From Geosiphon pyriformis uo1 (lineage: Eukaryota; Fungi; Glomeromycota): a stretch of DNA of 64,000 bases. The position numbers were made by a program, and so were the translations under genes. The stretch lies in contig JAAOMT010000503.1 of assembly GCA_016748015.1 (NCBI GenBank), positions 645,669-709,668 on the forward strand, read 5' to 3'. The notes under the pieces were generated by a model. That model had not been told where the DNA came from, searched no databases, and saw only the letters and a program-made list of their open reading frames with translations. Position 1 is the stretch's first letter. Each line of letters begins with the position of its first letter. Positions 2,926-64,000 of this stretch are shown here, one piece after another.

Positions 2926-2957
2926 TTTGAAGTTTGTTGTTGCTATGTTATTTTTGT

Positions 2958-2969
2958 GGGAGAGCACCA
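2958..2969 (-). promoter_or_regulatory. Primer binding site of element A (TGGTGCTCTCCC)
   Basis: TGG-initial motif 2 nt downstream of the LTR terminal CA, as expected for complementarity to a tRNA 3' CCA end. Confidence 0.8.
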
Positions 2970-2971
2970 AA

Positions 2972-4381: not shown

Positions 4382-4794
4382 TGTTACCAGTAGAATTTTA
4401 GCTATTAATTAGCATAAAATTCTCCTTATAATTCCTATAATTCATTAGTATATTAATATCATTTCAAATTATCATTTATTATTTAGTCAATTATCACATA
4501 TCACGATTCAATTAAAATAATCTAATTAGTATAACAGAAAGTAGGATGATCAAATTACACAATACCCTGAACTTTGTAACATTCAAAAATTCACAGAAAT
4601 TCGCCGATATTTATAAGAAATTCGCCGAAATTTACAGAAATTCGCCGAAATTATGAATAGTTCACCCAAATTAATCAATAGTTCAGCGAAATAACTTGTA
4701 GTTCATTAAAATGTATCTTTAGTTTGCCGAAATTTGAGCAAAGAGAAAAAGTGCAAGTTCATAGACTAGTACTACAACAAGTTGTATAAAAGAA
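4382..4794 (+). repeat. 5' LTR of element B (U3 part, truncated by gap)
   Basis: Near-identical to 11869-12260, plus one extra ~20-bp repeat unit. Confidence 0.93.
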
Positions 4795-5187
4795 NNNNNN
4801 NNNNNNNNNNNNNNNNNNNNNNNNNNNNNNNNNNNNNNNNNNNNNNNNNNNNNNNNNNNNNNNNNNNNNNNNNNNNNNNNNNNNNNNNNNNNNNNNNNNN
4901 NNNNNNNNNNNNNNNNNNNNNNNNNNNNNNNNNNNNNNNNNNNNNNNNNNNNNNNNNNNNNNNNNNNNNNNNNNNNNNNNNNNNNNNNNNNNNNNNNNNN
5001 NNNNNNNNNNNNNNNNNNNNNNNNNNNNNNNNNNNNNNNNNNNNNNNNNNNNNNNNNNNNNNNNNNNNNNNNNNNNNNNNNNNNNNNNNNNNNNNNNNNN
5101 NNNNNNNNNNNNNNNNNNNNNNNNNNNNNNNNNNNNNNNNNNNNNNNNNNNNNNNNNNNNNNNNNNNNNNNNNNNNNNNNNNNNNNN
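4795..5187. other. Assembly gap (393 N)
   Basis: Run of N. Confidence 0.99.
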
Positions 5188-8100
5188 GAAATGCAAATGG
5201 TTGGATTGCAGCAAGAATGCTCAAAGCAATTCCCTACTTTCTCCAAGGAACAGCAGGAGAATGGTTTGAAAATTTAGAAGAACTATTTGAAAACTGGCAA
5301 GCATTCAAAGATGTTTTTCTACAACAATTCACTGACAACAATACCTCTATCACTCTCAGAAACCGCTTTCACAATATCAAACAAGAAACATCTGAATCTG
5401 TTATGACCTATCTTGGAAGATTTAACAAACTTTTCAGACAAATCCGACAATTGGAAACCAATGACTACTATTCTGATGCTCAAATTCTGAATCAGTTTAT
5501 AGCAGAGTTAAAAGACAAACTGATTAAGAAAGTCTGTCTACATGCTCTAGCAGACTTAGCAACTGCTATTAGACATGCAAAGAGCTATGAGATGACAATG
5601 GAAAAAGCAAATTACACCAAGCTTGTAAACCTTGCAATTAGAGAAACCAGCTCAGCAGCTGAAAAAAAGATAGACCAATTCACAAGGAAAGTTGAAAGCT
5701 ATTTTACAAACCAACAACAACAGCAGCAACAACCACAAAGATATCAACCACTACAACAATGCAACCAAAACAATTTTGGATTACCATTCAACAACCAATC
5801 TAAAAATTATCATTATTGTGGAATTCCAGGACACTGAAAACGAGATTGTAGGAAATTACAAAGAGACCAACAAAACAGGAGTAATCAATATTACTCTTTA
5901 TCACAACAATCCTATTACCAATCTCCACCACCAACTTATTATTCACCAAGACCACAAAATCAAAACTACTATTCACCAGCTCCACAATTAATGCAGCAAC
6001 AATATCAGCAACTTTTACCAATTCAGCCATATCAGACACCACCCACTCAACAATATCAAGTACCAGCAAGAAGATTGGTTCAATATAATCAATTCATACC
6101 CCAAAATCAATTGCAAAGTAACAACAACAGAATCAATCCAAATAACCAGTTGGTTCCCTAAAATTCGGGTCAGCAAAGACCCAATCACTATCACACTCAA
6201 CCCAGTTATCTTACAATACTAGAGGAATTGGATTTTCAACAAACTGTACTTTCTGAAGATGAAGTTGCAGTGCTAAGATCAAACCCTTCCAACCACACCA
6301 TTCCACCAGCTCAAATTGCCCAAAATGCTAATCTGTCAGATATATTTCCATTTGAATTTGAAGCAAATGAATCATCATTTCTGCTTAGTAATGCAGCAGT
6401 TAATGAACAGAAAGCAATTACTGCTATGTACACAGAAGTTACAGTGGAAAAAAAACCCATTCACTTAATCTTAGATAGTAGATCAGCTGGAAGTATCATC
6501 ACTTATCAGCTGATGCAACAACTCAAACGAAACGTAGACAGACCAGCTCAAACAGTTATTGTCACAGCTAATGGTATGAAGAAGACTCCAGTAAGAGAAA
6601 TTGATAATTTCCCTTTTTCAATTGATGAAATTACTATTCCAGTTAAAGTTCTTGTTATGGATACACCCCAATACTAAGCTCTAGTTGGAAATGATTGGCT
6701 TCTTAAGGCCAATGCAAATCTGAACTGGAAAACTCAAGAACTTAAAATCTCATACCAAGGACAATATACCATAGTACCTGCAATCTGTAGTATCTTTAAC
6801 AAATGATCAAAAAAAGCTCCAGTATTTGAATTTGAAGAGGAGAAAGAAATACCACTTACTGAAACCTACATGACTCTTAGATTAACATCCAATTGGGCTA
6901 AAGAAACTGAACAAGAGATTTTTGAAAAATCAAGGGGATGGAAGAAAGTTAGATATTCTACACCAGAACCATGGAAACAACCACCCTATATTTTACTTAA
7001 ATGCAAAGATTGCAACAAAAAACTTTCATCAATAAGAACATGTATTTCTTCAGAAGAGGAATATGAAACTCGTATCTGTTACTTTTACAAAGCATATCAT
7101 AGAGAACGATTTGGATCTCCAAAGAGAAGTGGAAAATGGAACAACACATCTTGTCTTACATGTGGAGAAATACTACCAGAAGAATGCAATTGGATTGATG
7201 TAGCAATAAGAGGAGTATGTGATCAAATCTGTTAATATGCTCTATCAATTTCGGAAAAAGTCAGAAGAAGAACACCATTTGATGCAGCATACAACAGTGC
7301 TCTCAATAAACTTTACCACTACTCTCATGATGCTGAAATGATTTTTGATCTAGCAATGGCATTGATCAATGAAGCCACCCAAGAAGATGTCTGCCAAATG
7401 AAAGAAGCTGAACATATTGAGTATACCATGGAATTAGCTGGATTTGATTATGAAGATAAAGTAGAAACCTACCACCAAATTGCAAGCCATACATATCCGA
7501 CCAAAGAAGCTCAAATTCAATGATTAGAGCAAATAAACATTCAATTGTGTGAAGAATGTGTTATGCCTTGTAATGACCAATGGTGTTTAGAATGTTATGT
7601 TCTTAACATTCCTCTGCCAGATGAGAATGATGAAAATGAAATCGAATTTGGAGTATCTGAACTAGTAGAAGAACTACCAACCACTCCCATCTATCTTCTT
7701 GAAAAACAACCACCTCTACAACTTAAATATTTTGACAACCATGGCCAAGGAATCAGACCAGAAAAAGCACACGAAATTGATGCTGGATATAACCTAAGAT
7801 ACCCAGAAAAAGATACTTTGATTCTCCAACCAAAGTCTTTGACAAAAATTAATCTCAAAATTGCTCTCGAAATTCCACCAGGAGCAATGGTTCAAATTGC
7901 CTCCAGATTATCATTGGCAAGCAAAGGAATCAATATTAGAGGAGGAGTTATAGATGCAGGATACACTGAAGACATTACCATCATGTTACAAAATAAGACA
8001 GACAAACCATTCAAAATTGAACATGCTAAAAAAATTGTTCAAGCAATTTACTTACCCTTAATCAACATTTCGGGTTTACAATTAGTAAACAACAGAGAAC

Positions 8101-9995
8101 AATTGGGAAAAAGTGAAAGAGGAACTCAAGGTTTTGGTTCAACTGGACGATTTACAGTTCCAGTAAACATAGTTCTTAATACACAAAATGAATCTTACCA
8201 GATTCTTTAACTTCCTCAGCCAATTACCAATTCACCTTTTGGAGAACATCACAAAATTTACACTTGCTCAAAACCCACCACTACACAACAAATCTTTGAA
8301 TCCAATGAACAAATCTGTTTGAAGCATGAAATATCAATTCCAAACATTTATATTTTCAAAGGAATGAAAAAATTTTGAGTTACATTCTACAACCCCAATA
8401 ATTACCCTATTGTTTTATTAAACAAATTAAAAATTGGAATTATACACAGCAATATCTTTCAAGATGAAAACCCTCAAATTGTCTCTAATTTTATCGAAAT
8501 TGTAAAGCACACTCTACTCCCAAATCCAAATATCATTACCACTACTGAAAACTACCACTTGTTAGAAAAAAAACTCTCTTGAATCAATATGGGTCCCTTA
8601 GAACCTTAACAACAAAGACAATTGAAACAATTGATAGCTGAATTTGCAGATATATTTGCAAAAGACAACAATGACTTGAGAAAAACAGACATTGTTCAAC
8701 ATCAGATCCATACAGGAGATGCTTTACCAAAACATCAACAAGCTTATCAAGTGCCACCTGCCAGCCACCAATTCATCAGAAAAGAGGTCCAAAGAATGCT
8801 CAATAACGGATTGATTCAACCATCAAGAAGTTCTTGGGCCTCACCAGTAGTTTTAGTTAAAAAAAAAAACGGAAAAATCAGATTCTGTGTTAATTATAGA
8901 CAACTGAATAGTGTTACAATTGGAGATGTCTATCCTCTTTCAAGAATTAATGACATGCTAGATGCTCTAAAAAAAACCAAGTTCTTTTCAACTTTAGACC
9001 TGGAAAGTGGATACTGGCAAGTCGAAATAGACCCAAAAGATAGACCCAAAATAGCATTCACCACTCAAGAAGAAAATTATGAGTTTAATGTTATGCCTTT
9101 TGAACTCTGCAATGCACCAGCAACATTTCAGCGACTCATGGATGTTGTCTATGAAGGGCTTTTGTGGCAATCAGTAGTTGTTTATCTTGATGATACTGAT
9201 GTATACTTACCAAGCTTTGAAGCCCATCTCATTCACCTGCGAGAAGTTTTTCAATGATTACGGAAAGCAGGACTAAAGTTAAATATTAAGAAATGTCACT
9301 TTGGAAAAACAAGCTTGATCTTTTTTGGACACATAGTTAGTAAAGATGGAATCAAACCAAATCCAGGAACAATCAGTGCTGTCAAAAACTTTCAAATCCC
9401 CAGAAATACTACAGAACTATGAGGATTTGTGGGATTAGCCTCTTACTATCAAAAATTTATAAAAAAATTCTCAGAAATTGCCAAACCACTCAATTATCTT
9501 ACCAACAAAAATGTACTATACAAATGGACTAAAAAACAACAAAAAGCTTTTGAAATTCTCAAAACAAAATTGACAACAGCCCCAGTTCTTGCTTACCCAG
9601 ACTTTAACAAACAATTCCAATTAGCCACTGATGTCTCACACATAGCATTTGGTGCCATCTTATCACAATTGGATGAAAATGTCCAAGAACAAGTTATTGC
9701 TTATGCCAGCAGAACACTCAAGCCAACAGAACTCAAATATGGCTCAACTGAATTAGAAGCTGCTGCAGTTATTTGGGCTTTTAAACATTTTCAACAATAT
9801 CTGAAGAATGAAAAAGAATTTGACATAATAATGGACAACATTGGCCTCAAATGGTTCAATAAAAAGAAAACTGAACAAAGTGCCAAACAGTCTTGATGGA
9901 ATGACTTCTTAGCAGACTACAAATATATTGTACACTACAAACCAAGAAAACTACATACCAATGTTGATAGCCTCTCAAGAATGAGACAAGATTAA
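5188..9995 (+). pseudogene. Fused gag-PR-Cys-rich-dUTPase-RT-RNaseH ORF of element B (single frame, nonsense-disrupted)
   Basis: All fragments share one frame; Zn knuckle YHYCGIPGH*KRDC (~5810-5850), PR LILDS(R)SAGS (~6465), RT YLDD (~9183), RNaseH LATDVS..ELEAAA..MDN; ends NVDSLSRMRQD* (TAA 9993-9995). Confidence 0.92.
7752..8147 (+). pseudogene. dUTPase domain within pol of element B
   Basis: All five trimeric dUTPase motifs: AGY(N/D)L, ASR(L/S)SLA, GGVIDAGYT, KI(V/A)QAI, RGTQGFGSTG. Confidence 0.92.
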
Positions 9996-10052
9996 TACCA
10001 ACAACAATTCCACCACAACTTACCAATTTACCAACAAAATAACCAAACAAGA

Positions 10053-11420
10053 ATGGATTCCAAAAACTACAGCAATCTTAAAAATTATTTGGAGACTCTT
10101 ACCATGCCAGAAAACTGGTCTCCAAGTAAAAAACACTGCTTACAACACCAATCAAAACAATATTTCATACACCAGAACAAAATCTATTATAAAAATCACA
10201 GAAAACCAAACCAGCCACTCAGATTAGTATAAGAGAATGAAAAAAAAACAATTTTATACAACATGCACACAGATCCGTCTTCAGTACACTTGGGAAAAGA
10301 GGGAACAATTCAAAGAACTCTTGAACATTATTTTTGGCCTCACATGCAAAAAGACATTCGACAATATGTAGAATCTTGTAATAATTGTCAAAGAATAGGA
10401 GGAACTCGCTCCACAGAACCTTTAAATCCAATCAAAGTTGGACAACTTTTTGACAGAGTTGGAATTGATTTAGTCGAACCATTACTTATCACAACCCAAG
10501 GAAATCATTATATTGCAGTTGCAGTGGATTATCTTACCAAATAGCCTGAAGCTAGAGCCATCCAAAGAGCAGATGCAAAATCAGTAGCAAATTTCATCTA
10601 TAAAGACATTATCTGTAGACATAGATGCTCAATTGAACTCTTATCTGATCAAGGAACACATTTTGTAAACAACTTGATACAAGAAATTTGTGAATGGTTC
10701 AATGTCAAAAGACCTCTATTATCACTTTATCACCCTCAAACAAATGAACTTGTAGAACGTTTTAACAGAACATTGTGTAAATCTCTAGCCAAAGTCTCAA
10801 CAGACTTTGAGCAGGAATGGGATATCTTTATTTCATCAGTGTTACTAGTATACAGAACACTAAAACAAGATACTACAAAACACATACCATTTGATCTTAC
10901 TTATGGAAGGACAGCAACATTACCAATTAATTTCACAGTAGAAACATATCCAGTACAACCAATCAATAAAGAAAACTTTCAAGAGACACTCCAAAGAAGA
11001 GCCTACACTCTTCTTAGTACACTGGAAGAAAAAAGAAAAATAGCAGCAACTCATATTGAACATTCCCAAGCTCAACAAAAAGAAAGACATGACAACAAAT
11101 TACCACCTATTACCAATGAATTTAAAGTTGGAAATAAAGTTCTCTTACACAGAACTAAGGCTGAAAAACAATGGAGTGAGAAATTTGAAAACAAATGGGA
11201 TGGACCATTTTATATTCACGAAATTCTAAGCAATGGATCATATAAGTTAAGACTTGATGACAAAATATTAGCAAAAGTTGCACATGGAGACAGATTAAAA
11301 CACTATCATTCCAAAAACAATCCTGAATCATTAATTCCACAAATTGGTACACATTCCCCTTTAATTAATCCTGAAGATATTCCCCGAAATTTAGAACCAA
11401 TAATTATAATAGAACAATAA
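10053..11420 (+). pseudogene. Stand-alone integrase ORF of element B
   Basis: ATG MDSKNY at 10053; HHCC (H..H..CNNC), GIDL, SDQG, N(G)LVERFN, GPF motif (WDGPFYI); no chromodomain. Confidence 0.9.
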
Positions 11421-11424
11421 CCAA

Positions 11425-11634
11425 NNNNNNNNNNNNNNNNNNNNNNNNNNNNNNNNNNNNNNNNNNNNNNNNNNNNNNNNNNNNNNNNNNNNNNNNNNNN
11501 NNNNNNNNNNNNNNNNNNNNNNNNNNNNNNNNNNNNNNNNNNNNNNNNNNNNNNNNNNNNNNNNNNNNNNNNNNNNNNNNNNNNNNNNNNNNNNNNNNNN
11601 NNNNNNNNNNNNNNNNNNNNNNNNNNNNNNNNNN
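11425..11634. other. Assembly gap (210 N)
   Basis: Run of N. Confidence 0.99.
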
Positions 11635-11888
11635 ACACTCACTACAAACTTAAAGCAGCTCTTAGACTCTATGACTTGTTTAATACTTGTGAAAATGTTC
11701 TACAAAATCCAATACTGCAACCAATGAAAGTCCAATACATTGGCAAACTCACAGAACTGAAATTTCAACAATTTTCAGACCAGATTACTTCAATTATTTT
11801 AGATCACTATCTCAATATTACAGATAGTGCTTGGACTTCGATGGAGCTCAGTCTTGAGGAGAAAATTATGTTACCAGTAGAATTTTAG
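11635..11888 (+). CDS. 3' part of ORF3 (unknown protein) of element B, reading through the PPT into the 3' LTR
   Basis: HYKLKAALRLYDLF..QYIGKLTELKFQQFSDQI..MELSLEE matches ORF3 of element D. Confidence 0.8.
11856..11865 (+). promoter_or_regulatory. Polypurine tract of element B
   Basis: GAGGAGAAAA 3 nt upstream of the LTR TG; element D has GAGGAGGAGG. Confidence 0.8.
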
Positions 11889-12848
11889 CTATTAATTAGC
11901 ATGAAATTACCCTTACAATTCCTATAATTCATTAGTATATTAATATTATTTCAAATTATCATTTATTATTTAATCAATTATCACATATCATGATTCAATT
12001 AAAATAATCTAATTAGTATAACAGAAAGTAGGATAATCAAATTACACAATACCCTGAACTTTGTAACATTCAAAAATTCACAGAAATTCGCCGAAATTTA
12101 CAGAAATTTGCCGAAATTATGAATAGTTCACCCAAATTAATCAATAGTTCAGCGAAATAACTTATAGTTCATCAAAATGTATCTTTAGTTCATCGAAATT
12201 TGAGCAAAGAGAAAAAGTGCAAGTTCATAGATTAGTACTACAACAAGTTGTATAAAAGAAGAGCTTTTTTCTTCTGGAAAATGTATCTTACTTTAGATTT
12301 ATCTCTTAAAACCATTCCTATACACACAAAAAAAAAAATATCAAATAATTTAAAAAACCAAATTCTTTAATTATTGTACTTGGAAAAACCCCCAAAAACC
12401 CAACTAACATTTCGAAATTGATTAGCTACCAATTTCAGTAAACTGTTAGTGACTCCAGGCCTGAATAAAAAACGTTTTTCTTGACAAAATTCTATTTCTT
12501 TTACATTTCTTTTATTTTTCTTTTATTTTCTTATTACAATCATTAGGGTAGCCTACAGACAAGATTCCTGTAGAAGAGTTGACTTTCACAGCAAAGTAAC
12601 TATACATTTTAGTGAGCTTTCAGACGAGCAATTCTTGGGAAAGAGTTGATGTTTATTACAACGTAACTACATAAAGTAACTGGCAAAGAATTGGCCATTC
12701 CACTTATAAGTCCAGCAGTTCAAATTATAGGAGATAATTTGAAGATAAATTCAGTTATTCGAGGTTCAACCACATCCAGAAAACGTGAATTCACAACAAA
12801 CAGGCATCAATAACATTTAAGAAAAGAGACCAAAAACCTCTGATAACA
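11869..12848 (+). repeat. 3' LTR of element B (980 bp)
   Basis: TGTTACCAG...CTGATAACA with short terminal inverted repeats; TATAAAA box near 12251. Confidence 0.95.
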
Positions 12849-31887: not shown

Positions 31888-31888
31888 A

Positions 31889-42655: not shown

Positions 42656-42719
42656 TAATTTTCCTGTGAATCTTTCCCAATGATTGTCAATCACTATTTG
42701 AATTGTATTTTTTCTTAAA

Positions 42720-49106: not shown

Positions 49107-49296
49107 TTTGGTGCTCTCTGTGAAGTATAATCCTATAGAGAACCAGCACCAACAATAATTATCCAAAAGTGGCAGAATCAGAAATCATAAGGACAAACCA
49201 TTTAGGATTCACCAAATCTTTATTTCAATAGTATAGCCAACAATTGAGCTTAACTAACAATTATTATTCAGTAGAATTAGCCTTCAACTTTTATGT
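48251..49296 (+). mobile_element. Gypsy element C1 (family 2): 5' LTR, PBS and first ~190 bp, interrupted by C2
   Basis: LTR 48251-49106 (TG..CA), PBS TGGTGCTC at 49109, gag start VAESE..NHLGF homologous to C2. Confidence 0.88.
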
Positions 49297-50174
49297 TGTT
49301 ACTCATAGAATATAGAAAATATATATTAGCATAAATTAGCCAATCAAAAATAATCATAGTAAATGTAGAATTCTAGGATTCCTCTTAAGAAGAATTGCAG
49401 GATTCCAGGAATTTCAGGATTCTCATATAAGGAATTGCAGAATTCCAGAATTCCAGAATTCCTCTCAAAAGAAATTGCAAGATTCCAGAAATTTTAGAAT
49501 TTCTGGTGTGAGAAATTGAGGAATCGAAGAATCTCAATTATGTATATATAGCAGTAGTATTAGAAGGAGAAAAAAACAGAATTCTTTAGTTAGAGACCTC
49601 TCAGTTTAAATCTGATCTAAGCAACCTTTTATTCATAATTATTAATAAATAATTATTTACTATCACAATCTACTCTCTACTATTAACACTTCATGTTGAT
49701 AGTAATTGATACTTGATTACATGGGAACAATAGCTTTTAATCATGGCTATTGACAGGATACTAATTTGCAATTGCTTTTACTCATTTTTTTTTATTCTTT
49801 TATTTTTTTTTATTTCTTTTGTTATTTTTTTGGTTTTACTAAATTGATTAAAGATTAAGTGCTAAGATACAAACATCATAAGAACTGGTAAAAGACCCAT
49901 GAAACAAGAGTAAAACACTCATAGATTTAAGGATAGCTTACCAGGAGGATTACCAGCCATCACGCTAAGAAAAAAATTTGATGAAACTGCAGTTTCAAGA
50001 AACTACAAATAAAACCATTAATTAAATCTCTGTCTATTATATAAAGAACTCAACCAAAACCTTCAGATAAAGACAAAGTACCAATATTACCAACATCATT
50101 TACCAGATTAGTTACTAAGTACCAAGTTATAAGTTTGTTATTTGATTTAAGACCCCAAATAATTACTTGTAATA
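49297..50174 (+). repeat. 5' LTR of C2 (878 bp; terminal CA mutated to TA)
   Basis: TGTTACTCATAG...CTTGTAATA followed by the PBS. Confidence 0.9.
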
Positions 50175-50176
50175 TT

Positions 50177-50193
50177 TGGTGCTCCATGTAAGG
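50177..50193 (+). promoter_or_regulatory. PBS of C2 (TGGTGCTCCATGTAAGG), resembles the complement of tRNA-Ile(UAU)
   Basis: Lies 2 nt after the LTR; similar to TGGTGCTCCAGGTGAGG expected from the eukaryotic tRNA-Ile(UAU) 3' end as I recall it. Confidence 0.6.
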
Positions 50194-50236
50194 TATAATC
50201 CTACAGAAAACCAGCACCAACTACACTCATTTAAAA

Positions 50237-53200
50237 GTGGCAGAATCAGAAAGAATAGGAGCAAACCATTTAGAATTTGCAAAATTCTTATTTCAATAGT
50301 ACAGCCAACAATTAAGATTAAACAATAATCATTTTCCAGCAAAATCAGCTTTCAACTTCTATGTTAATGACAAAATTACAGACTGCTTAGGAGAAACAGT
50401 TAACATTGAATCCACAAGAAAAAACTTCTATACAGAATTATTCCAACATACCAGCTTACCAAGAAACTACAGTTTCACACCAATCATCAGAGAAATAAAC
50501 CAAACTATTGAAAAATATACACAACAACAATTCTCAATTACCTATGCAGACAAAGAAAAAGGAAGACTACAAATACCAACAGTGACACCAAAAGGGATCC
50601 AACCACCCACTTGGAAAAAAACTAGAGTTGAATTGCCAACAAATTCATTATATCACTATACACCAGAAAGTGTTATTAACATCTCATCAACAGGCATGTC
50701 CACATCAAATATGACATCAACATTTGGATGATTTTTATTTCAAAGTAAACAAACGAAAGCAGAATTACTAAGAACCTATGACAATTATTTTGAAAAATTT
50801 AAATTGTGATTGCCAATGCTATCAGAATTCTGATCACCACCACCTCAACCAAATTTTGGAAATGCAAGTCTCTGAGAGATAATAGAATCAGAAAAGAAGG
50901 AAGAAAAAGAAGCCAAAGATTAAGAATTTACTTACTAGAACCTGATTCTGGAAAACCCGAACATCAAAATCCCAAACTTTTAGACTCAACAAGATCCAAA
51001 TTTAGAAAATCCAGAAATCAAAACTCCAAATTTTCAAACTCAGCAAAATCGGAACAATCAAAGCCCCAACATTAATAATCAACAATACTTACTTCTAGTA
51101 ATTGTCATCAACCCACTACCAGTTGCCCTACAACAACAGCCACTGCCACAATTCCAAATTCAATTACTACTTCAACTACCACAGCAACTAAACTTGAATC
51201 AAATGGCTTATGCTTCCATAGTGAAACTCAAAAAATTTACTGGCAAAGAGAATGACACCCAAGTATGGCTGAACGATATGAAAAAAGCCATTGTAGCCAA
51301 TGGATGGGATGACACCAAAGTCATGCAAGCCATCTCCTACTTTCTCCAGAATACTGCCAATTCATGATATCAAAGTCTAGCCAACAAACTCCAGGATTTT
51401 AATAAATTCAAACTTGCATTTCTACAATATTTCAGCAATAATAATAGTATTAATCATCTAGCAAACACTTTTACCACCATCAAACAAAGAAAAAATGAAG
51501 CAGTTACTATTTATTTAGGACACTTTCACAAAAATCTGCACCAAATCCAGACAATCCAGGCTGATTATTTTACAGCACCACAAATCCTAAATCAATTCAT
51601 TAAAGGTCTATGCAATAACATCTTTTAGCATATACATCCAATGCATTCAGTAGATCTTCAAGCTGCAGTTACAAATGCCAGAGATTTTGAAGCAGATAAA
51701 CTCAAAGCCAACCACACCCAAGCCATTAATCTAGTAATGAATGGATCATCTGAATTAGATTCCAAATTGAAACAATTCAGTGATTCAATCAATCAGAAAT
51801 TAGAGGGATACTTAACTGACAATCATGCAATTTATAAACTACCATAATAACACAATAATTCAGAAAATGCAAATTGTTTCTAAAATCAGTCACATCTATT
51901 ATCTTCAACCAATCAACAGTGGCAACAGGAGATGTGTGTTTGCTACTACTGTGGTAAACAAAGGCATTTAAAAATTGATTGTAAGTTAAGGATAGAAAAC
52001 CAATGATCAGGAAATCAATATCAAAACTCTAATTGCTGGTTTCAAACTCTGAATTACCAACTCAATCCAGCATCATATCAATTGACTTATCTACCAATGA
52101 TGTAACAGCCAATATATTAACCACCCATATATCAATCTTCAATTTATCAACCACCACCATCAGTAATATATCAACCACTGTAGCCACAAATAATTTATCA
52201 GACATCTGCAGTTCAAACACTGCCATCAAACCCAGCTCAAATGACATCAAGAAACCCTAGATCAAGAGTCATCCAAAACTGGAGATTAGTAATAGTTGTC
52301 CACCAACCAATTTCCAGTTTATCCAACTAGCCATTAAGATCATGCCAGTAGAGTTCAGGAACTGGGTATACTCAAAACCCGAATTCCCAACACTATTTAA
52401 GTTTTCTGGTTACTCCAGAAGATACCCAACTCAATAATCCAGAAACAAACCAACAATCAACACTTACCAGCAACATTTCACCAGCTATCATCACCGAGAA
52501 TGAATTACTGGACGCCATCTTCCCATTTGAACTCAAAGAACTGTTAGCTACACTGTTGTTTAGTGAAGCTGCTCTTAAAGAAAAACCTATCACTGCCATA
52601 TACACTAATGCCAAAGTTGATGGCCATCCTATCAAACTAATCCTAGACAATAGATCAGCTGGCAGCATCATCACACAACAACTCATGGACCAATTAGGTC
52701 GCCAAATTGATCAAGCTGCCAGTGCCAGAATCATAACAGCTAATGGAGTGACCAAAACTCTGATTGGCAAGATAAATGACTTACCTATTAAAATCAATGG
52801 CATCATCATATCCATCAAAGTTCTTGTGATAGAAGCAATTCAGTACCAAGCACTTGTTGGTAATGACTGGCTGTCCAAAACCAATACAATGCTTGATTGG
52901 ATTATGCAGGAATTACAATTTAGCCAGGACAGTTAACACACACATATACCAGCCATGTGTGACCACTTTAAGACTACCACCCTGCTAGCACTACTGATAG
53001 AATTTGAGGAAGAAAAAGAAAAACCTACTTGGAAAGCCTATCAAGTGGCCTGGACTGATGAAGATCACAATAAGCTATCACTGATACTCTCTTGGAATGA
53101 CAAGGGAAAAGGGAAATGAAAAGAAAAACCTACCTGGAATGCTGACCAAATCTGAATATCTGATGACAATCAAGACAAACTAACAACTTGGAAGTGGAAA

Positions 53201-56200
53201 AAAGATAACAATAAAAAAAAAAGAAAGAAAAGGAAGAAGATCCAACACCAATTACCACTTATAGTCCATATGCTTACTCTTCACTACTGCCATCTAACTA
53301 TTGCTGATTAAAATTAATATGTGTAGATTGTGGCAAGAAATTGTTGTTAATGGATGCATGCTGTAATGATGATGATGAATACTCCACAGCAACAAAGTTC
53401 TATTGTTACCATGTATTATAGAATGGTTTGGATGCCCAAAAAGACAAAAAAAATGGGATAACAAATCTTGTCTTGCATGTGGAACTATTTTGCCTGACAA
53501 AGAAATGTGGAATGACATTCCTGGATGAGAAAGAACATGTGATGAGACATGCCAGTATATCATCCTAATAAATAACTGGATACATAAAGAAACCCCAATT
53601 GACAATGCCTGGAAAAAAGCATTGCAATGATTGGAAGGATATCCTCACAACAAACATGAAATCTGAAAAATAACAAGTGTAAAAGCAAAAGGTGCTACTA
53701 CCAGCAAGTTATTAGAAATTAAAAATAACTCACTCTCACTGTCTGAACCTGAATATGTCCTCATCTTCAATGTTTTCAGTAATATTGAAGATGATCTGGA
53801 AGAATTCCACGAATATTATCAATGATTAGCATCTACTAGAAAAGAACAAAAGCAGTGTTTAGAGCAATTGAATACTCGATTATGTCAACATTGCTTAATT
53901 TTCTGTGACTTTCAATATTGTAATGAGTGTGACCTTATTTACAATCCACCAATACACATGATCTATATGATCCTGAAAGAAGAAGAATCAATCAGCAGCT
54001 GTGTATTAGAATTGGAATCAATTTTCAATTCTGATTTAAACTCCAACAATGATGATGACAAAAACAATAGTCCCAGCTCTGCTCAATATGGCAATGGAAA
54101 ATATAGCAATTCAAACTCTGATTCAAACCCTGAAACATACATCACACTCCCTGATTTCACCAAAGAACAGAAACTTAAATAGTTTAACAATAATAATGAA
54201 GATATTATGCCAGAATGCACACATGATACCGATGCAAGGTTTGATCTGAGATATTTAGAAAAAAATCTCATCAAATTAGAACCTCATTTGTGCATCTGCA
54301 TTAATCTCAAAATAGCACTGGAAATTCCAGCAACAACAATGGTTTAGTTAGCATCTAAAAATAGCTTAGCCAAAAAAGGAATCAACATCAGAGGAGGAAT
54401 AATTGATGCAGGATATGTAGGAAATATCATTGTAATGCTATAAAATGACTCAGAAAAGGCATATATTATAGATCTAAATAAAAAGATAGCACAGGCAATA
54501 TTCCTGCCTCTGATTAAAATAGCTCACTTAGTATCAGTGGAAAACAGAGAAGAATTAGGGATCACAGCTAGAGAGATACAGAGATTTGGATCCACAGGTA
54601 GAATAGATATACCAGTCAATATGGCAGAGAAAAAAATTATTGACAAGGAAAAAATTATCTTCACCCATCAACCAATTTTCATTCTATCATATGACCAGTA
54701 CATGGTAGTCATAGAAAAAAAAGTAAAAGATCAGATACAGATTTTTGAAGTGGAAGCAACACTTTGTGAATTAGGAAAGATCAGATTAGTCAATCTACAC
54801 ATACCAGCCAAAAACCACAGCCACATCAAAATTCCTATTTACAACAATACAGAAGACATTATTAAGATACCAAAAGGAACCACTATTGGATACTTGACCA
54901 CAGAAATTAAAGACCAATTCCAGACTTTCTACAACTGTGTGAATATGTGGATATCATATTTCAAATCATATACAGATGAAAAAAATGTTATTTGCTTCAA
55001 TTAGAACAATTGAAACAAATGAACATAGGACACTTAGATTCATTACAATATATGCAGCTCAAAATGTTACTCAACAATTTCAATGACATCTTTGCCAGTG
55101 AAAACAAATTTGGCAGAACTAACATCATCCAATATCAAATCAAGACTGGAAATACAATGCCAATTAAACAGAGAGCATACAGAGTACCACCAGCCAGCCA
55201 TGAGATCATTTGTCAAGAAATTAACTGAATGCTTAACAATGGGTTAATTCAACTATCAATGAGCCCATGGTCATTATCAGTAGTACTAGTTTATAAGAAA
55301 AATGGAAAAATTCACTTTTGTGTGGATTACTAAAAACTGAATAGAGTAATCAAAGGAAATAGTTACCCAACATCAAAGATTCAAGAACTGTTTGATGCTT
55401 TTGGAAGAAAAAAATGGTTCTCAACTTTAGACTTGGACAGTAGTTATTGGCAAGTAGCCATAAAACCAGAAGATAAGGAAAAAACAGCTTTCACAACATG
55501 AAAAGAAAATTTTGAGTTCAAAGTCATGCCATTTGGATTGATAAATGCTCTAGCAACATTCCAACAGCTTATGGAAATTGTCTATACTGGATTACTGTGG
55601 AAATCAGTAGTCATATACTTAGATGACACCAATGTGTTTTCAAAAACATTTAATGATCATCTGCATTATCTTCAACAAGTGTTTAAAAGACTAAGAAGAG
55701 CCAGACTAAAGCTAAATGCAATCAAATGTTTCTTTGGAAAAACTGAACTCAAGTTTTTGGGACATATGGTAAGCAAAAACGGAATTAAAACAGATCCAGA
55801 CAAGATTGAGATCATCAAGAACTTTTCAGTACCAAATAATTTCACAGAATTGAGAGCATTTTTGGAATTTGCTGGATACTACTGCCACTTTATCAAAGAC
55901 TTTTCCAAAATAGCTTAACCACTACACCAACTCCAAACAAAGAACACCAAGTATAAATGAACAAAAATTCAGCAAGAAGCTTTTGATACATTAAGAAAAA
56001 AGCTTATTCAAGCTCCAATACTGATCTATTTAGATCATAACAAGCCATTCATAATCACAACTAATACATCTGGTCAAGCATTAGAAGCAGTATTATCTCA
56101 GAAAAGACCAGATGGATGAGAACATCCAGTAGTTTACACCAGTAGAAGCTTAAGTCCAGCAGAAAAAAACTATAGAACACTAGCATTAGAACACTTAGCA

Positions 56201-56419
56201 ATCTATTGGGCAGTTATGAAATGGAAAAAATACTTGAGTCAAAAGTTTGATGTATACACAGATTATAAAGGATTGATTTCAATCCAGAAACAAGAATTTG
56301 CAGATAATTGCCATGTCAGATGGAAAATAAAACTGTTACCATTTAATTATACAGTGCATTACAAAAAAAAAAAAGAAAACGGAAATATCGACAGTCTGTT
56401 GTAAATGAGACAAATCTAA
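50237..56419 (+). pseudogene. Degenerate gag-PR-Cys-rich-dUTPase-RT-RNaseH polyprotein of C2
   Basis: Gag (KFTG..QVWLND..NGWDD), CYYCGKQRHLKIDC knuckle, PR, dUTPase (~54200-54600; GGIIDAGYVG, FGSTG), RT YLDD, RH; ends NIDSLL*MRQI* (TAA 56417-56419). Confidence 0.88.
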
Positions 56420-56450
56420 AAAACATTTCAACCCAAAAATATAACAAAAG

Positions 56451-57721
56451 ATAAATATACAAAAATACCAACAACTACAACATTATATAAATACCCAATT
56501 GTTTAAAGAGAAATTATCTCAAAAGAAACAAAGGAACATAAAACAACAATCAAAATATTTTATCAACCATCAAAATATACTTTATTGGAAGAACAGAAAA
56601 AATACAGATCAATCAACCAGAGTAATCACAGAATTAGAGAAAGAGACAATATTATTTAATATACACTCAGATTCAACAGCAGGACATTTTTATAAAAAAA
56701 CAACCATAGAAAAAATTAAAAAAAAATATTATTAATTATCAATGTATCCAGACATCATCCAATATGTTCAAAATTGTGATGCTTGTTAGAAAAGAGGAGA
56801 AACAAGACCCAATGAACCATTAAAACCAATCAAAATGGGACAACTATCCGATCATATTGAGATTGACTTAATTGGATCATTAACAATCACCAATAGAGGC
56901 AACAGATATATTGCAGTAGCCATGAACTATCTCACTAAATGGCCAGAAGCAAAAGCCATTCAAAGAGCAGATGCAGAATCTATTGCCAAATTTGTTCATC
57001 AAGATTTAATCTGTCAACATGGATGTCCAAAAAAACTATTATCAGATCAAAGAACTCACTTTGTAAATAGAACATTGACAGAATTAAGTCAAAGATTTGG
57101 GATAAAAAGACTATTATTATCATCATACCATCTATAAACAAATGGACTAGTTGAAAGGTTTAACAGAACATTGTGTAAAGCCATTGCCAAAATCAGCCAA
57201 GAAAACCAGGACAAATAGGATTTGATTATACCATCAGTATTATTTGCTTATTAGACAATGAAGCAAGACACTACACAAGCAACACCATTTGAATTAGTAT
57301 ATAGTAGAACAGCAACATTATTAGTTGAGATAAAAGTCAAAACTTATCCAACAGAACCAATAACAGAAGAAAATTTTCAAAAAACATTGTTAAGAAAAAC
57401 ATATGACTTAATGGAAACATTAGAAAACACATGGCAAAAAGCAGCTGATAATATCCAAAAGTCACAAGAGAAACAAAAAAAGACATAATAACCAACTACC
57501 AGATAAACCAGTTGAATTCAAGATTGGAAACAAAGTATTTTTAGATTGTACCAAAGCAAAAAAGCAATAGAATAGAAAATTTGACCCCAAATGGGACAGA
57601 CCATTTCACATAGAAGAAATTCTTAGAAATGAAGCTTACAAATTAAGGTTGAACAACAAAATCTTAACCAAAGCAGCACATAGTGATTAACTAAAACCAT
57701 ATCACTATATAGTATCACTAT
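56451..57721 (+). pseudogene. Stand-alone integrase ORF of C2 (start probably ATG mutated to ATA)
   Basis: HSDSTAGHF..CDAC, IDL, SDQ, NGLVERFN, WD(R)PFHI. Confidence 0.85.
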
Positions 57722-58707
57722 TGTTACCGGAGGTTTTTGGTCTCTTTTCTTGAATGTTGTTGATGCCTGTTTGCTGTGAATTTACGTTTTCTGGATGTGG
57801 TTGAACCTCCAGTAACTGAATTTATCCTCAAATTATCTCTTATAATTTGAACTGCTGGACTTATAAGTAAAATGGCCAATTCTATGCCAGTTACTTTGTA
57901 TAGTTACATTGTAGTAAATGTCAACTCTTTTCTAAGAATTGCTTGTCTGGAAGCTCACTAAAATGTGTAGTTACTTTGCTGTGAAAGTCAACTCTTCTAC
58001 AGAAATCTCATCTGTAGACTACCCTAATGATTGTAATAAGAAAAGAAAAGAAAAATAAAAGAAATGTAAAAGAAAAAGTAAAACTGATGATTTATGGAAG
58101 TCGTTTCGGATCCAGGCCTGGAAGTGCTTTAACAGTCTACTGAAATTGATAGCTAATCAATTTCAAACTGTTAGTAAGAATTAATTAATTCCAAGAGAAA
58201 TAATTAAGAATTTGGTTTTTCGAATTTATTTAATATTTATTTTGTTTTTGTGTGTAAAGGCTGATTCTAATTATTAAATCTGAAGTAAGATACATTTCCT
58301 CAAAAAAAGAAGCTCTTCTTTTATACAACTTGTTGTAACACTATTCTATAAACTTGAACTTTGCTATTTTTTATAATTTCACTGAACTAAAGATACATTT
58401 CGGTGAACTACAAGTTATTTCTGTGAACTATTAGATATTTCGGCAAACTATCAATTATTTCGGCGAATTTCTTACAAATTTCGGCAACTTTTTGAATGTT
58501 ACATAGTTCAGGGTATTGCATGATTGATCATCACAATTAGGTTACATTTGTGTTATGTACAAATTGGGTTATTAATTAAATGATAATTTTGGATATTTTG
58601 CTAATGTAATAAGTAATAATTTGGAAATGATAATATATGCTAATTAATGATAAGATTTATAAGAGTAATTTCATGCTAAACAATATCTCTAATTTTGTCT
58701 GGTAATA
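57722..58707 (-). repeat. 3' LTR of D (986 bp; initial TG mutated to TA)
   Basis: Minus strand TATTACCAG...CCGGTAACA; homologous to the A and B LTRs. Confidence 0.92.
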
Positions 58708-59395
58708 TAACCTCCTCCTCAAGACTGAGCTCCATCAAAGTCCAAGTACTGTCTGTAATTTTCAGATAATAATCCAAAATTATTGAAGAAATTTGGTCTG
58801 AAAATTGTTGAAATTTCAGTTCTGTAAGCTTTCCAATGTATTGAATCTTCAAAGGCTGTAAAATTGGGTCTTGTAGGACGTTTTTATAGGTGTAGAATAG
58901 GTCATAAAGTCTAAGAACAGCTCTTAGTTTATAATGACTGTTTGTAGACCCAGCTGTTGTCTTGAATTCATTGTAAAGTTGTTTCCGAATAGCTTCTTTT
59001 GCAAGGTTTGCTGTTGTAAGCTCTAGTTTTTGCTTATGAAGTGTTTTTTCAATATAAAAATATCTATATATTGGAGGGTATTTGCCATTTTCTTCATTAA
59101 GATACAGTTGAAGTTTTTGTTGAATAATAGCATTTGGTGAAATACTAATAGGGGCGAGCAATAAGTTTTCTCATAAAACAAGCTTCAAAAGTTCTGGTAA
59201 ATAAATTCCAGAATAACTTCTTGTGTTCTTCTTATATGGATGATATTTTTGTGCATTTGGAGCTAAATTTGCAACTACTTCTGTTTAGGTATAATTAATG
59301 TGGTTTCGAGTAACAGTAATGGATAATTTGAGTATTGTTTTTAAAGCTAACATTAGTTTTTGGGATAATTGTTGAATGTTTTGAGGAATAGACAT
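58676..59395 (-). pseudogene. ORF3 of element D, ~239 codons, unknown protein (two nonsense codons)
   Basis: ATG MSIPQNIQQ at 59395 is in frame with ORF 58676-59161; the TAA and TGA stops are explicable by single C->T changes. Confidence 0.8.
58711..58720 (-). promoter_or_regulatory. Polypurine tract of D
   Basis: GAGGAGGAGG 3 nt before the LTR. Confidence 0.85.
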
Positions 59396-59517
59396 TATAA
59401 GAGATTTGAAAATAAAAGAAAATTATTTTTGGTGTATGGGTTTTTATGTTATTTTTGTTTTGTTTTTGTAAGATTGTTTCTAAATTATAATGATATAACT
59501 ATAATAATAAATTTAAA

Positions 59518-60900
59518 TTAAGTATTCAAGTTAGGAGGTTGTTCAATGATAACTATTGGTTCTAAATTTTGGAGAATGTCTTTGGAATTGATTAAAAAAG
59601 AATGTGTATCAATTTGTGGAATTAATGGTTCAGGGTTGTTTCTGGAATTATAGTATTTCAAATGATCTCCATGTGCAACTTTTGCTAGGATTTTGTTATC
59701 AAGTCTTAGCTTGTATGATCCGTTGCCTAAAACTTCATGGATAAAAAATGGTCCATCCCATTTATTCTCAAATTTTCTACTTCATTGTTTTTCAGCTTTA
59801 GTTCTGTGTAAAAGAACTTTGTTTCTAATTTTAAATTCATTGGTGACTGGAGGCAATTTGTCATCATGCCATTCTTTTTGTTGAGCTTGGGAGTGTTCAA
59901 TATGGGTGGCTGCTATTCATTGTTTTCTTTCCAATGTGCTAAGCAGAGTGTAGGCTTTTCGCTGAAGCATTTTCTGGAAATTGTTTTCATCAATTGGTTG
60001 TGCTGGGTATGTTTCCACTGTGAAACTAATTGGTAATGTTGCTGTCCTTCCATAAGTTAAATCAAATGGTGTGTGTTTTGTGATATCTTGTTTTAGTGTT
60101 CTATATGCTAGTAACACTGATGGAATAAAGAGATCCCATTCTTGCTCAAAATTGGTTGAAACTTTGGCTAATAATTCACACAATGTTCTGTTGAAACATT
60201 CTACAAATCCATTGGTTTGTGGATGGTAGAACAAAAATAATGGTCTCTTGACATTAAATTGTCCACAAAATTCCTGGATTAAATTGTTCACAAAATGTGT
60301 TCCTTGATCAGATAAAAGTTCTATTGGGCATCCATGTCTACAAATGATGTCTTTGTAGATGAAGTTTGCTACTGATTTTGCATCTGCTCATTGAATGGCT
60401 CTGGCTTTAGGCCATTTGGTGAAATAGTCTATAGCTACTGCAATATAACGGTTTTCTTGGTTTGTGATAGGTAGTGGTTTGACTAAATTGATACCAACTT
60501 AGTCAAAAGGCTGTCCAACTTTGATTGGGTTTAATGGTTCAGTAGGGTGTGTTCCTCCTCTTCTTTGACAACTATCACAAGATTTGACATATTCGTGAAT
60601 GTCTTTTCTTATTTGAGGCCAAAAGTAGTATTCTAGTGTTCTTTGGGTGGTGCTGTCTTTTCCGAAGTGTGCTAATGAAGAATCTGAGTGCATGTTGTAT
60701 AATATAGTTTTTTTTTTCTGTTTTTGTATTAATCTGAGTGGTTTGTCTGGGTTTTTGAAATTTCGCTGATAAATAATGTTGTTGTGTAGAAAATATTGTT
60801 TGGCTTGTTGTAGTTAATGTTTTTCATCTGGAGACCAATCTGTTGGAATTGTTAATGTTTCCAAATATTGTTTGAGATTGTTGTAGTTTTCCAAATTCAT
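59518..60900 (-). pseudogene. Stand-alone integrase ORF of D
   Basis: ATG MNLENY at 60900; HSDSSLAHFG..CDSC, SDQG, TNGFVE, WDGPF. Confidence 0.88.
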
Positions 60901-60947
60901 TGTTTGTTGGCTGTTTTGGTTGGTTAAGTTGAATGTTGGTTTTTTTT

Positions 60948-63900
60948 CTAATCTTGTCTTATTCTGGAGAGACAGTCAACATTGGTGTGGAGTTTTTCTG
61001 GTTTATGATGTACTATGTATCAATAGTTTGCTAGAAATTCTGTCCATTAGATTTGTTTTGTATTTAGCTGAGTATTTTTGTTCTGAAGCCATTTAAGTTC
61101 AATATTATCAGTAATAATATCAAATTCCTTTGGCCAGAGATAAAAGTTGAAATGATGTAGGGCCCAAATTACAGCTGCTGTTTCCAATTCAGTGGCAGGA
61201 TAATTTTTTTCAGCTGGTTTTAATGTTCTGCTAGCATAGGTGATTACTCGCTCATTTCTATTGTCATCCAATTGTGATAGGATAGCACCAAAGGCAGTAT
61301 AAGAGGCATCTGTTGCTAATCGGAATCAGTTGCTGAAATCTGGGTAGGCAAGAATTAGAGCTGTCATTAGTTTTTCTTTGAGGATTTCAAATACATTTTG
61401 GCATTCAGCAGTTCATTCATATTTGACGTTTTTGGTGGTAAGCTAGTTGAGAGGTTTTGCAATTTCTGAGAATTCTTTGATAAACTTCTGATAGTAAGAG
61501 GCTAACCCTATGAATCCTCTTAATTCTGTAGTGTTTCGAGGAGTTTTGAAGTTTTTGACAGTGCTGATTTTTTTAGGGTCCAGTTTGATTCCATTTTTAC
61601 TAACGATATGACCAAGGAAGGCCAAGCTTGTTTTTTCAAAGTAGCATTTTTCAATGTTGAGTTTTAGTCCTGCTTTTTGTAATCGTTGAAAAACTTCTCG
61701 CAGGTGTTTTAAGTGTAATTTGAACAATAGAGAATAAACATCAGTATTGTCAAGATAAATGACTACTGACTTCTAAAAGAGTCCTTGGTACACAACATCC
61801 ATTAATCTCTAAAATGTTGCTGGTGCATTACATAATCCGAAAGGCATTACATTGAACTTGTAATTTCCGCCTTGGGTGGTGAATGCTGTTTTGGGACAAT
61901 CTTTGGGATCCATAGCAACTTGTCAGTAACCACTTTCTAAATCTAGTGTTGAAAAGTATTTGGATTTTCCAAGGGCATCTAATATGTTATCAATTCGGAG
62001 AAGGGGATAGGCATCTCCAATTGTAATACTGTTGAGTTGTCAGTAGTCAACACAAAATTGTATCTTTCCATTTTTTTTTTAACTAACACTACAGATGAAG
62101 TCCAAGAACTCATGGAGGGTTGGATGAGCCCGTTGTTAAGCATTTGTTGTACTTATTCTTGGATGAATTGGTGGCTTTCTGAAGCAACTCGATATGCTTG
62201 TTGTCTTCTTGGTTTGGCATCTCCTGTATAAATTTGGTGTTGAACCAAATTGGTTTTTCCTAAGTCATTGTTGTTTTCAGTAAAAATATTGGTAAATTCT
62301 GCAATTAGCTCTTTGAGCTGGCTCTGTTGTTGTGGTTCAAGTTGTTCTATGTTGATTCAAGATAGTTTTTTTTATGACAACATGGTAGTTTTCAGAGCTA
62401 GGGTTTGGGTTGATTTTTGGTAGTGAATGTCCAATAATTTCCGAAAAATTGGGAACTGTCTGAAGTAGTTCTTGTTGAAAGATGTTACTGTGAATGACTC
62501 CAATTTTTAAGTTATTTAATAGAACTATGGGGTAATTGTTGGGATTGTAAAAAGTAACTTGGACTTTCTTTGTTTTTTCTGAAATATAAATGTTTGGGAT
62601 CAAAATATTATGTTCCAAGCAAACTTGTTCATTGGACTCAAAAATTTGTTGTGTGGTTGTTGGCTTTGGGCAGGTGTAGATGTTCTTCAAAAGATAAGAT
62701 GGTAATTGGTTGTGGAAGTCTGAGAATCTGGTGGGATTTGTTCTGTGTGTTAAGAGCTATATTAACTAGAACTGTGAATTGTCCAGTTGAACCAAAACTT
62801 TGGGTTTTTCTATTGCTTTTTCCTAATTGTTCTCTTTGATTGACTAGTTGCAAACCCAAAATGTTGATTAGGGATAGGTAAATAGCTTGGGCAATTTTTT
62901 CAGCATAGTCGATCTTGAATGGTTTGTCAGTTTCATTTTGAAGCATCACTGTAATGTCTCCAGTATATCCAGCATCAATTATTCCTCCTCTGACATTGAT
63001 TCCTTTGCTTGCCAGAGAGAACTGGGAGGCAATTTGAACCATTGCTCCTAGTGGGATTTTGAGTGCAATTTTGAGGTTGATTTTTGTGAGAGATTTGAGT
63101 TTGAGAACAAGAGTATCCTTGTCTGGATATCTTAGATCGTATCCAGCATCAATTTTATGTGCTTTTTCAGGTTTTATTCCTTGTCCGTTGTTGTTGAAGT
63201 ATTTGAATTGTAAGGCAGGTTGACTTTCAATAAGATAGATAGGTGTTGTTTCAATTTCTTCTGTTGCTTCAGGTTCTCCAAATTCAATTTCATTTTCATT
63301 GTTTTTACTGGGCAGAAGAACGCTAAGAGCATAGCATTAAAGACACCATTGCTCATCGCAGGGCATTATGCATTCTTCACACAATTTAACGTTCATTTGC
63401 TCTAGCCGTTGAGCTTGAGCTTCTTTGGTTGGGTAAGTGTGACTGGCAATTTGGTGATATATTTCTACTTCATCTTCGTAGTTGTATCTAGCAATTTCAA
63501 AGGTGTATGCAATGTATTCTGATTCTTTTATTTGACAAACATTTTCTTGAGTGGCTCCGTTGATTAAAGCCATTGCTAGGTCAAAAATTATTTCGGCATC
63601 ATGAGGATAATGGTACAGTTTGTTGAGAACACTGTTGTATGCTGCATCAAATTTTGACTTTTTCTGAGATTGATAAAGCATATTGGCAGGTTTGATCACA
63701 GACTCTTCCTCTTATTGCTACATTAATCCAATTGCATTTTTCTGGTAGCATATTTCCACAAGTCAAACAAGGAGTGTTGTCCCATTTTCCACTTCTTTTT
63801 ATTAGATGGCCCCATCGTTTTTTGTGGCAAGCCTTGCAGTAGTAACAAGTATGATTTTCATATTTTTCTTCAGGTGAAATACAGGCTCCCATTGACAATA

Positions 63901-64000
63901 GTTTCTTGTGGCAGTCCTTACATTTAAGAGGAATGTAGGTGCATTGTTTCCTTAGTTCAGGCTTTGAGTAAAGGATATTCTATCCAGGGGTTTCGGGATT
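60948..64000 (-). pseudogene. Degenerate Cys-rich-dUTPase-RT-RNaseH region of D
   Basis: CYYCKACH..CLTCG..CDQTC, CEECIMPCDEQWC, dUTPase (DAGYDL, GGIIDAGYTGD, FGSTG), RT YLD(N), RH; ends NVDCLSRIRQD* (TAG 60950-60948). Confidence 0.9.

Follow-up and report, generated by a model that had tools for sequence, protein, structure and literature searches.

A sense reading frame downstream of the integrase, referred to here as ORF3, is almost certainly a real accessory gene of a dUTPase-bearing clade of Ty3/Gypsy retrotransposons in the fungus Geosiphon pyriformis. As the sequence-only reading of this DNA had proposed, the gene is conserved: it is found in many copies between pol and the 3' LTR, is preserved as well as pol itself, falls into six families and also occurs downstream of an integrase on a metagenome contig. 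The window, i.e. the whole stretch of 64,000 nucleotides that was analysed, contains a complete but dead copy in element D and the 3' part of a second copy in element B. The features on which the analysis draws are as follows.

59518..64000, minus strand: pol of element D with dUTPase, RVT_1, Integrase_H2C2 and rve domains and an RNase H region, decayed and running past the window edge
59396..59517, minus strand: AT-rich spacer of 122 nt between the pol stop and the ORF3 ATG of element D
59422-59406, minus strand: pyrimidine tract in the D spacer
58676..59395, minus strand: ORF3 of element D, 239 codons from the ATG at 59395 to the TAG at 58676, with two in-frame stops
58711..58720, minus strand: PPT GAGGAGGAGG, inside ORF3 of D and 3 nt before the LTR
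57722..58707, minus strand: 3' LTR of element D, 986 nt, TA...CA
58112..58121, unstranded: palindrome CCAGGCCTGG in the LTR of D, a candidate cis element
4382..12848, plus strand: element B, a whole Ty3/Gypsy copy with Pfam domains, LTRs and the 4-bp target duplication CTGT
11637..11888, plus strand: codons 153-235 and stop of ORF3 of element B, which represents a second subfamily with the tail PVEF

Element B reveals the architecture of the host element. Between LTRs of the TG...CA type, flanked by the CTGT duplication, Pfam domains for gag, protease, dUTPase, RT, RNase H and integrase follow each other in Ty3/Gypsy order, and ORF3 and the PPT precede the downstream LTR. Element D aligns to element B at 77% over 4.5 kb and likewise possesses the PPT; its LTR starts with a mutated TA in place of the TG seen in B and in metagenome contig L001, and its 5' end lies beyond the window. 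In element A, the LTR is followed by TGGTGCTC, taken as the PBS. The integrase ends in an SH3-like tail, and a Pfam search returned no chromodomain match for it. The dUTPase domain is located between protease and RT in both D (62638-63336) and B (7524-8210), and its dN/dS of 0.18 indicates purifying selection. The same placement is known from the rotifer elements Juno, Vesta and TelKA, and dUTPase was described as rare in retrotransposons and, as of 2017, known in fungi only from basidiomycetes (PMC5408684).

The sequence-only reading had described ORF3 as a 239-codon sense frame in D that is partly visible in B. The frame from 59395 to 58676 is indeed present, in sense with the pol of element D, but it is not open. 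Codon 37 is a TAA (59287-59285) and codon 75 a TGA (59173-59171); both stops had been overlooked when the frame was taken as open, and they leave a longest stop-free part of 164 codons. Each is one C>T away from the Gln and Arg, respectively, shown at these positions by most intact relatives. Over its full length, ORF3 of D is 87% identical to the intact gene model G9A89_002041. Another model, G9A89_021608, shows 100% identity wherever the two align and omits the stretch with both stops; thus, it evidently represents the D locus itself with a mispredicted intron. The D copy is dead, a pseudogene. As for element B, the 3' third of ORF3 is visible as claimed, and the remaining 5' part falls into a gap of Ns (11425-11634).

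The differences between the two copies bear out the earlier claim of purifying selection. In the 77 codons preceding the LTR, which represent the best-conserved part of ORF3 (78% between subfamilies vs 49-64% for residues 15-152), 30 synonymous and 16 non-synonymous differences were counted, 29 of these 46 at third positions and including the CTA/CTT and GCT/GCA exchanges. The resulting dN/dS of 0.084, far from a value near 1, compares with 0.21 for integrase, 0.18 for dUTPase and 0.16 for RT/RNase H in the same pair, and with 0.85 and 1.4 for the other two sense frames over the ORF3 stretch. The corresponding pN/pS was 0.15 (95% bootstrap CI 0.08-0.27), or 0.13 when the PPT-proximal codons were left out. 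Since transition bias alone lowers pN/pS, neutral simulations were carried out in which the same types of substitution were placed at random sites. They gave a median of 0.61, and none of the 2000 runs reached a value as low as the observed one. The B-D signal is purifying selection, beyond chance.

Superimposed on this selection is decay. Within the two ORF3 subfamilies, a single C>T or G>A reaches 381 of 572 and 351 of 585 minority residues, respectively; these changes are decay of inserted copies, to which we attribute the stops in the D copy. Intact copies exist nonetheless, as 28 of the best 120 among 186 homologues are full length. The two LTRs of element B (4382-4794 and 11869-12260) differ at 15 of 391 sites, and 14 of the 15 changes are transitions, spread over CpA (8), CpC (2), CpT (2) and CpG (2) and hence not limited to CpG. 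These transitions are genome-wide C>T decay. RIP was reported as undetected in Gigaspora and Mucoromycotina (PMC8647823).

Relatives of ORF3 are numerous in Geosiphon. The best 120 of the 186 homologues are all G. pyriformis gene models. Two profile searches yielded 62 matches (60 from Geosiphon, 2 from ENA) and 50 matches (49 from Geosiphon, 1 from JGI), respectively. A HMMER scan of 1.84 billion representatives, run with the close alignment only, returned 35 matches, and the eight whose source was looked up comprise six G. pyriformis and two metagenome proteins. The homologue search recommended earlier was therefore productive for Geosiphon and metagenomes, but it named no second species. 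A possible place of ORF3 in a large protein family of Rhizophagus found no support, G. pyriformis being the only species named in the word-index searches and the HMMER scan. Likewise, no relative was found in viral_contigs, the plasmid search gave no match, and the best of four phage matches by tblastn (E 0.4) ran antisense to annotated genes. The ESM Atlas contributed only leads of low recognition, among them a cluster of 190 aa from Mucoromycota at 0.90.

The matches form six families, four of them (D, B, E, F) from Geosiphon and two (M1, M2) from metagenomes, whose cores are 21-35% identical to one another, except for the closer pair D/B (73%). Membership of the E family is backed by profile comparison (probability 89%, E 2e-6). 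In the search with 62 matches, 7 of the 62 proteins carry the SH3_Tf2-1 label and 19 of the 48 new proteins are gene models that include integrase C-terminal sequence, which indicates that ORF3 of the E family follows an integrase as well. The gene order could be read directly outside the window on L001, which came from a pattern scan of metagenome contigs that 2 of 485 matches passed. Here, RT, RNase H, integrase, a spacer of 316 nt, ORF3, PPT and LTR follow each other; the pol/integrase part is 57% identical to that of B and shows some decay (two stops in pol), and ORF3 is intact with 230 codons. At the DNA level, the comparison covers two Geosiphon copies (B in part, and D) plus two metagenome contigs. 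An unrooted ORF3 tree places M1 and M2 with B and D against E and F, and an unrooted integrase tree places L001 with B and D against E and element C. The trees are concordant for the three groups they have in common, (L001,(B,D)) vs E. This is consistent with joint inheritance of ORF3 and integrase, as judged from three groups, unrooted trees and long branches.

At its 3' end, ORF3 reads through the PPT into the LTR, as had been noted. The PPT translates as E-E-E in D and as E-E-K in B, and the frame extends 32 nt (D) or 20 nt (B) into the LTR; an overlap is also present in L001. ORF3 of D, B, M1 and M2 reads the PPT in one and the same frame and shares the tail E-L-x-L-E-E-x-I-M-L-P. However, the 40-nt junction encoding it is the sole stretch past pol in which L001 aligns to B or D at the DNA level, and because this junction comprises the PPT and the LTR edge, conservation of the tail reflects cis-acting DNA. 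A different end seems to be used in the E family, whose proteins finish with F-A-G-A-Q-F, similar to the F-D-G-A-Q-S-stop that results when the DNA at the PPT edge of D is read one base on. Judging from this protein tail, ORF3 of the E family seems to terminate immediately ahead of the PPT. Thus, the read-through is real and old in one branch, and it is needless for ORF3 function.

A parallel to lentiviral nef had been drawn from this layout. Nef overlaps much of U3 and carries an N-terminal Gly for myristoylation. ORF3 resembles nef in running through the PPT into U3, but the parallel turned out to be weak: the overlap amounts to about 10 codons, the tail is set by cis-acting DNA, and the E family apparently stops earlier. 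Moreover, ORF3 proteins start with MS, MT, MI, MD or ME in the alignments and thus lack the N-terminal Gly, and there is no homology between the two. ORF3 may still have the Nef core fold, although the rows listed in the fold searches with its model do not include it.

The protein itself was predicted to be helical, in agreement with the sequence-only reading. An AlphaFold run on 47 close rows alone reached a pLDDT of 42.9 and was not used. With 23 rows from all six families, representative P0146 was modelled at a mean pLDDT of 81.7 (pTM 0.65), with core blocks mostly at 85-97; three of the five models scored near 80 and two near 58. The model consists of an N-terminal helix and a beta-hairpin, a flexible linker containing a PY motif, and a confident helical core. 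The Foldseek check that had been suggested, run against PDB and BFVD, gave no match at E <= 0.001. In the VIA fold search, no Z >= 5 was obtained among 48,161 and 992 chains, and the best value, 4.3, is below the level usually reached by unmatched models. These searches barely cover the N-terminal 77 residues, and their outcome is not proof of a new fold. PDB sequence searches ended at E 0.32 and 0.77. Two family matches, PHROGs phrog_23683 (unknown function; 6 of 23 members, E 4e-4) and NCBIfam FtsQ (8 of 23 members, E 5e-4), were judged to be chance because the ORF3 members are close kin; in addition, a periplasmic cell-division protein does not fit.

Eight columns are invariant among the six family representatives (I, I, L, L, N, F, L, I), all of them structural and none catalytic, and no Pfam match to the enzymatic ORF3 types (GDSL, DEDDy, dioxygenase) was detected in the 47 members of set A2 or the 23 of set A6. 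The invariant Asn148 is part of a G-K-T-N turn between two helices. This basic helix-G-K-T-N-helix segment (~residues 130-167) has a net charge of +2 to +8 in all six families, and its Arg/Lys residues at 134, 146, 152 and 158 are conserved in at least four of them. With its Y-x-x-I-G-x-x-L motif followed by a helix, a G-K-T/S turn and a helix with R-L, it resembles DUF1016_N (PF17761) and the ParB/Spo0J HTH. DUF1016_N scored weakly on 7 of 47 members in the same register (best E 0.015; 12.9-13 bits vs a cut-off of 32.8), and the VIA rows include sigma-F (Z 3.8, rmsd 2.4, 56 aligned), Spo0J (Z 3.6, rmsd 5.6, 96 aligned) and ParB (Z 3.5, rmsd 3.0, 59 aligned), all tied with unrelated helical proteins. 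With scores at chance level (E >= 0.015; Z 3.5-3.6), the likeness falls short of showing membership in either family. Near residue 50, in a segment modelled with low confidence, all six representatives carry an R/K/H-x2-5-PY motif, which matches the PY-NLS consensus (PMC2408616); each shuffled ORF3 protein carries such a motif in 12-26% of cases. Among the 47 D/B members, the full motif is present in 20, the Tyr in 47 and the Pro in 27, and its alignment is loose in the E family. The pI varies from 5.2 to 9.7, so that overall charge is not basic in every family, and apart from the tail no acidic stretch is evident as an activation domain.

Which signals might serve expression of ORF3? The pyrimidine tract noted earlier upstream of the ATG exists in D, but its interpretation as part of a splice acceptor mutated by G->A found no support. 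The D spacer is free of ATG, and the AG closest to the ORF3 start codon is situated 86 nt upstream of it; L001 has a similar tract with no adjoining AG, the nearest being 73 nt upstream of the ATG. Two lineages without an AG beside the tract speak against an acceptor, although, L001 being partly decayed, a G may have been lost. The D and L001 spacers share their order of a TATA-like stretch, an A-rich run, the pyrimidine tract and the ATG. Judged by base composition, the simplest source of a separate ORF3 mRNA would be a promoter within the AT-rich spacer that follows pol.

Candidate target sites are present in the LTRs. Upstream of the TATA, U3 contains TT[CT]GCC repeats, of the form ...GCCG in A, B and D and ...GCCC in L001 and L002. 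The palindrome CCAGGCCTGG is situated 180-225 nt after TATAAA in the LTRs of A, D and L002; the LTR of this metagenome contig cannot otherwise be aligned and, as a single distant LTR, constitutes the support for the palindrome outside Geosiphon. In shuffle tests its score was reached in 2 of 300 cases for D, 3 of 300 for A and 29 of 300 for B, where it is one base off. Host factors could equally bind the repeats and the palindrome. The 3' 300 nt of the LTR (57722-58025; also in A and B) show 28 differences in 302 sites between B and D vs 99 in 535 in U3, and contain no coding frame. Being preceded by a long pyrimidine tract and an AG, this part may hold a splice site or an RNA element.

By analogy to foamy-virus Tas, our preferred model, plausible though short of probable, is that the ORF3 product would act in the nucleus as a regulator, binding nucleic acid of its own element. 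The nucleic-acid-binding transactivator or anti-silencing factor suggested by the sequence-only reading is likewise plausible. The PY motif would carry the protein into the nucleus and the basic helix-G-K-T-N-helix segment would bind nucleic acid. If the target is LTR DNA, i.e. the U3 repeats or the palindrome, binding might switch on or protect transcription of the element and create positive feedback as in the case of Tas. Tas, a dimeric activator that binds DNA in the nucleus, is expressed from an internal promoter, and foamy viruses also have accessory genes, tas and bel2, at their 3' end, with bel2 reaching U3 (PMC6950176). In contrast, no sequence or fold similarity between these proteins and ORF3 was found, the host is a fungus, the element is devoid of env, and the internal promoter, dimer formation and DNA binding of Tas are putative traits in ORF3. 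The complete scenario, namely that a fungal Ty3/Gypsy clade encodes a factor for transcription or anti-silencing that is sequence-specific, adopts an undescribed helical fold, is expressed from an internal promoter and binds a conserved LTR palindrome, is improbable when all of its parts are taken together. Should it be true, it would establish a foamy-virus-like feedback circuit in a retrotransposon without env, helping LTR elements to fill 41% of the Geosiphon genome.

Two explanations for ORF3 have largely lost their ground. A passenger, that is a captured fragment of a host gene or a chance frame, might be suspected from the two stops in the D copy and the many C>T/G>A-type changes in most copies; it is refuted for the B-D branch and hardly conceivable at large, considering that selection on ORF3 is as strong as on pol, that the frame is kept across six families and outside Geosiphon, and that no named host gene is among the matches of the searches. 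An env-like or membrane protein would be in its usual place, as env-like ORFs are sense frames between pol and the 3' LTR (PMC7264820). Against it, and in line with the sequence-only reading, none of ten representatives has a Kyte-Doolittle window of 19 residues above 1.5 (maxima 0.44-1.50) or a membrane helix, Cys residues number only 1-3, no Pfam family matches ORF3 of D below E 0.01, and the model is that of a soluble helical protein, making this reading very improbable and largely refuted already.

Two further functions deserve more weight. The candidate nucleic-acid-binding patch would fit RNA equally well, and ORF3 might accordingly be an RNA-binding helper that exports or shields unspliced genomic RNA in the manner of Rev or CERV, or that suppresses small-RNA silencing. 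The basic helical patch and the PY motif suit RNA as well as DNA, and the acceptor-like site formed by the long pyrimidine tract and AG in the LTR suggests that the RNA may carry splice signals. CERV of the C. elegans element Cer1, a nuclear accessory protein for RNA export made from a spliced mRNA, sets a precedent (PMC10309623), and small-RNA silencing of transposable elements acts in R. irregularis (PMC8647823). Yet no Arg-rich motif is common to all ORF3 families, and the ATG is without an adjoining AG in D and L001; we regard an RNA helper as rather unlikely, but as a serious contender. The other possibility is a protein-binding adaptor with a nef-like role, which would counteract a restriction or chromatin factor of the host, direct integration or transport particles through the multinucleate hyphae. 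Over long distances, ORF3 evolves much faster than integrase (21-35% vs 55-61% identity), as host-facing proteins do, its model is all-helical with the N-terminal helix and beta-hairpin set apart, and the integrase of the element gave no chromodomain match. What renders the adaptor unlikely is that the best-conserved part in B/D (78%, residues 153-215) starts at the basic helix, and that a myristoylation Gly and a match to a viral fold are both missing.

Returning to the putative nuclear regulator, other transposons are known to encode nuclear accessory proteins. Besides CERV, these include VANC21, the anti-silencing protein of the DNA transposon VANDAL21 (PMC8616336), and the antisense GENE23 of maize Grande, a nuclear protein without an assigned role (PMC7264820); homology of any of them to ORF3 was not detected. 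Third sense ORFs between pol and the 3' LTR (aORF-3S/ORF3), present in many copies as here, are known from Ty3/Gypsy elements of plants (PMC7264820) and bdelloid rotifers (PMC5408684). Those described are env-like with membrane helices or encode enzymes such as GDSL esterase and DEDDy exonuclease, whereas the Geosiphon protein is soluble, lacks any invariant catalytic residue and could not be matched to a family. No description of it was found in the open literature, subscription Geosiphon genome papers, Repbase and supplements aside. Extra sense ORFs in LTR elements are of a known kind, but a soluble, non-enzymatic and unmatched ORF3 family appears to be undescribed.

Retrotransposons are thought to need gag and pol alone. 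Extra genes under selection point to further steps in the life cycle or to counter-defence against silencing by the host. In G. pyriformis, 41.2% of the genome consists of LTR elements (PMC11952901), and a self-activating or anti-silencing ORF3 is therefore a testable cause of the LTR burst. Being small and soluble, with intact natural copies and a confident model without fold match, the protein is a tractable target. For genome annotation, well over a hundred 'hypothetical proteins' of G. pyriformis are copies or chimeras of ORF3 and not host genes.

The remainder of the window offers some additional observations. Element C (48222-57721) belongs to a related Gypsy family whose integrase groups with the E family; it is cut at the integrase end by the LTR of D, and no ORF3 of this element is found within the 64-kb window. 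It has two tandem LTR-like units (48222-49297 and 49273-50365) that are 77% alike. The gag of element A (1867-2973, minus strand) has ~300 residues ahead of its Retrotrans_gag domain, for which no Pfam match was obtained, and Pfam gave no clear assignment for the stop-free frames at 13550-15299 either. The sequence flanking element B (3945-4381 and 12849 onward) resembles the start of a LINE endonuclease, judging by its motif. Between the elements, host genes are located at 21884-22648, 24415-28332, 31327-32422 and 37511-42724, with labels comprising a weak JmjC match, an LRR protein, a ribosomal L30/L7 domain, a CoA-ligase domain and tuberin (TSC2-like).
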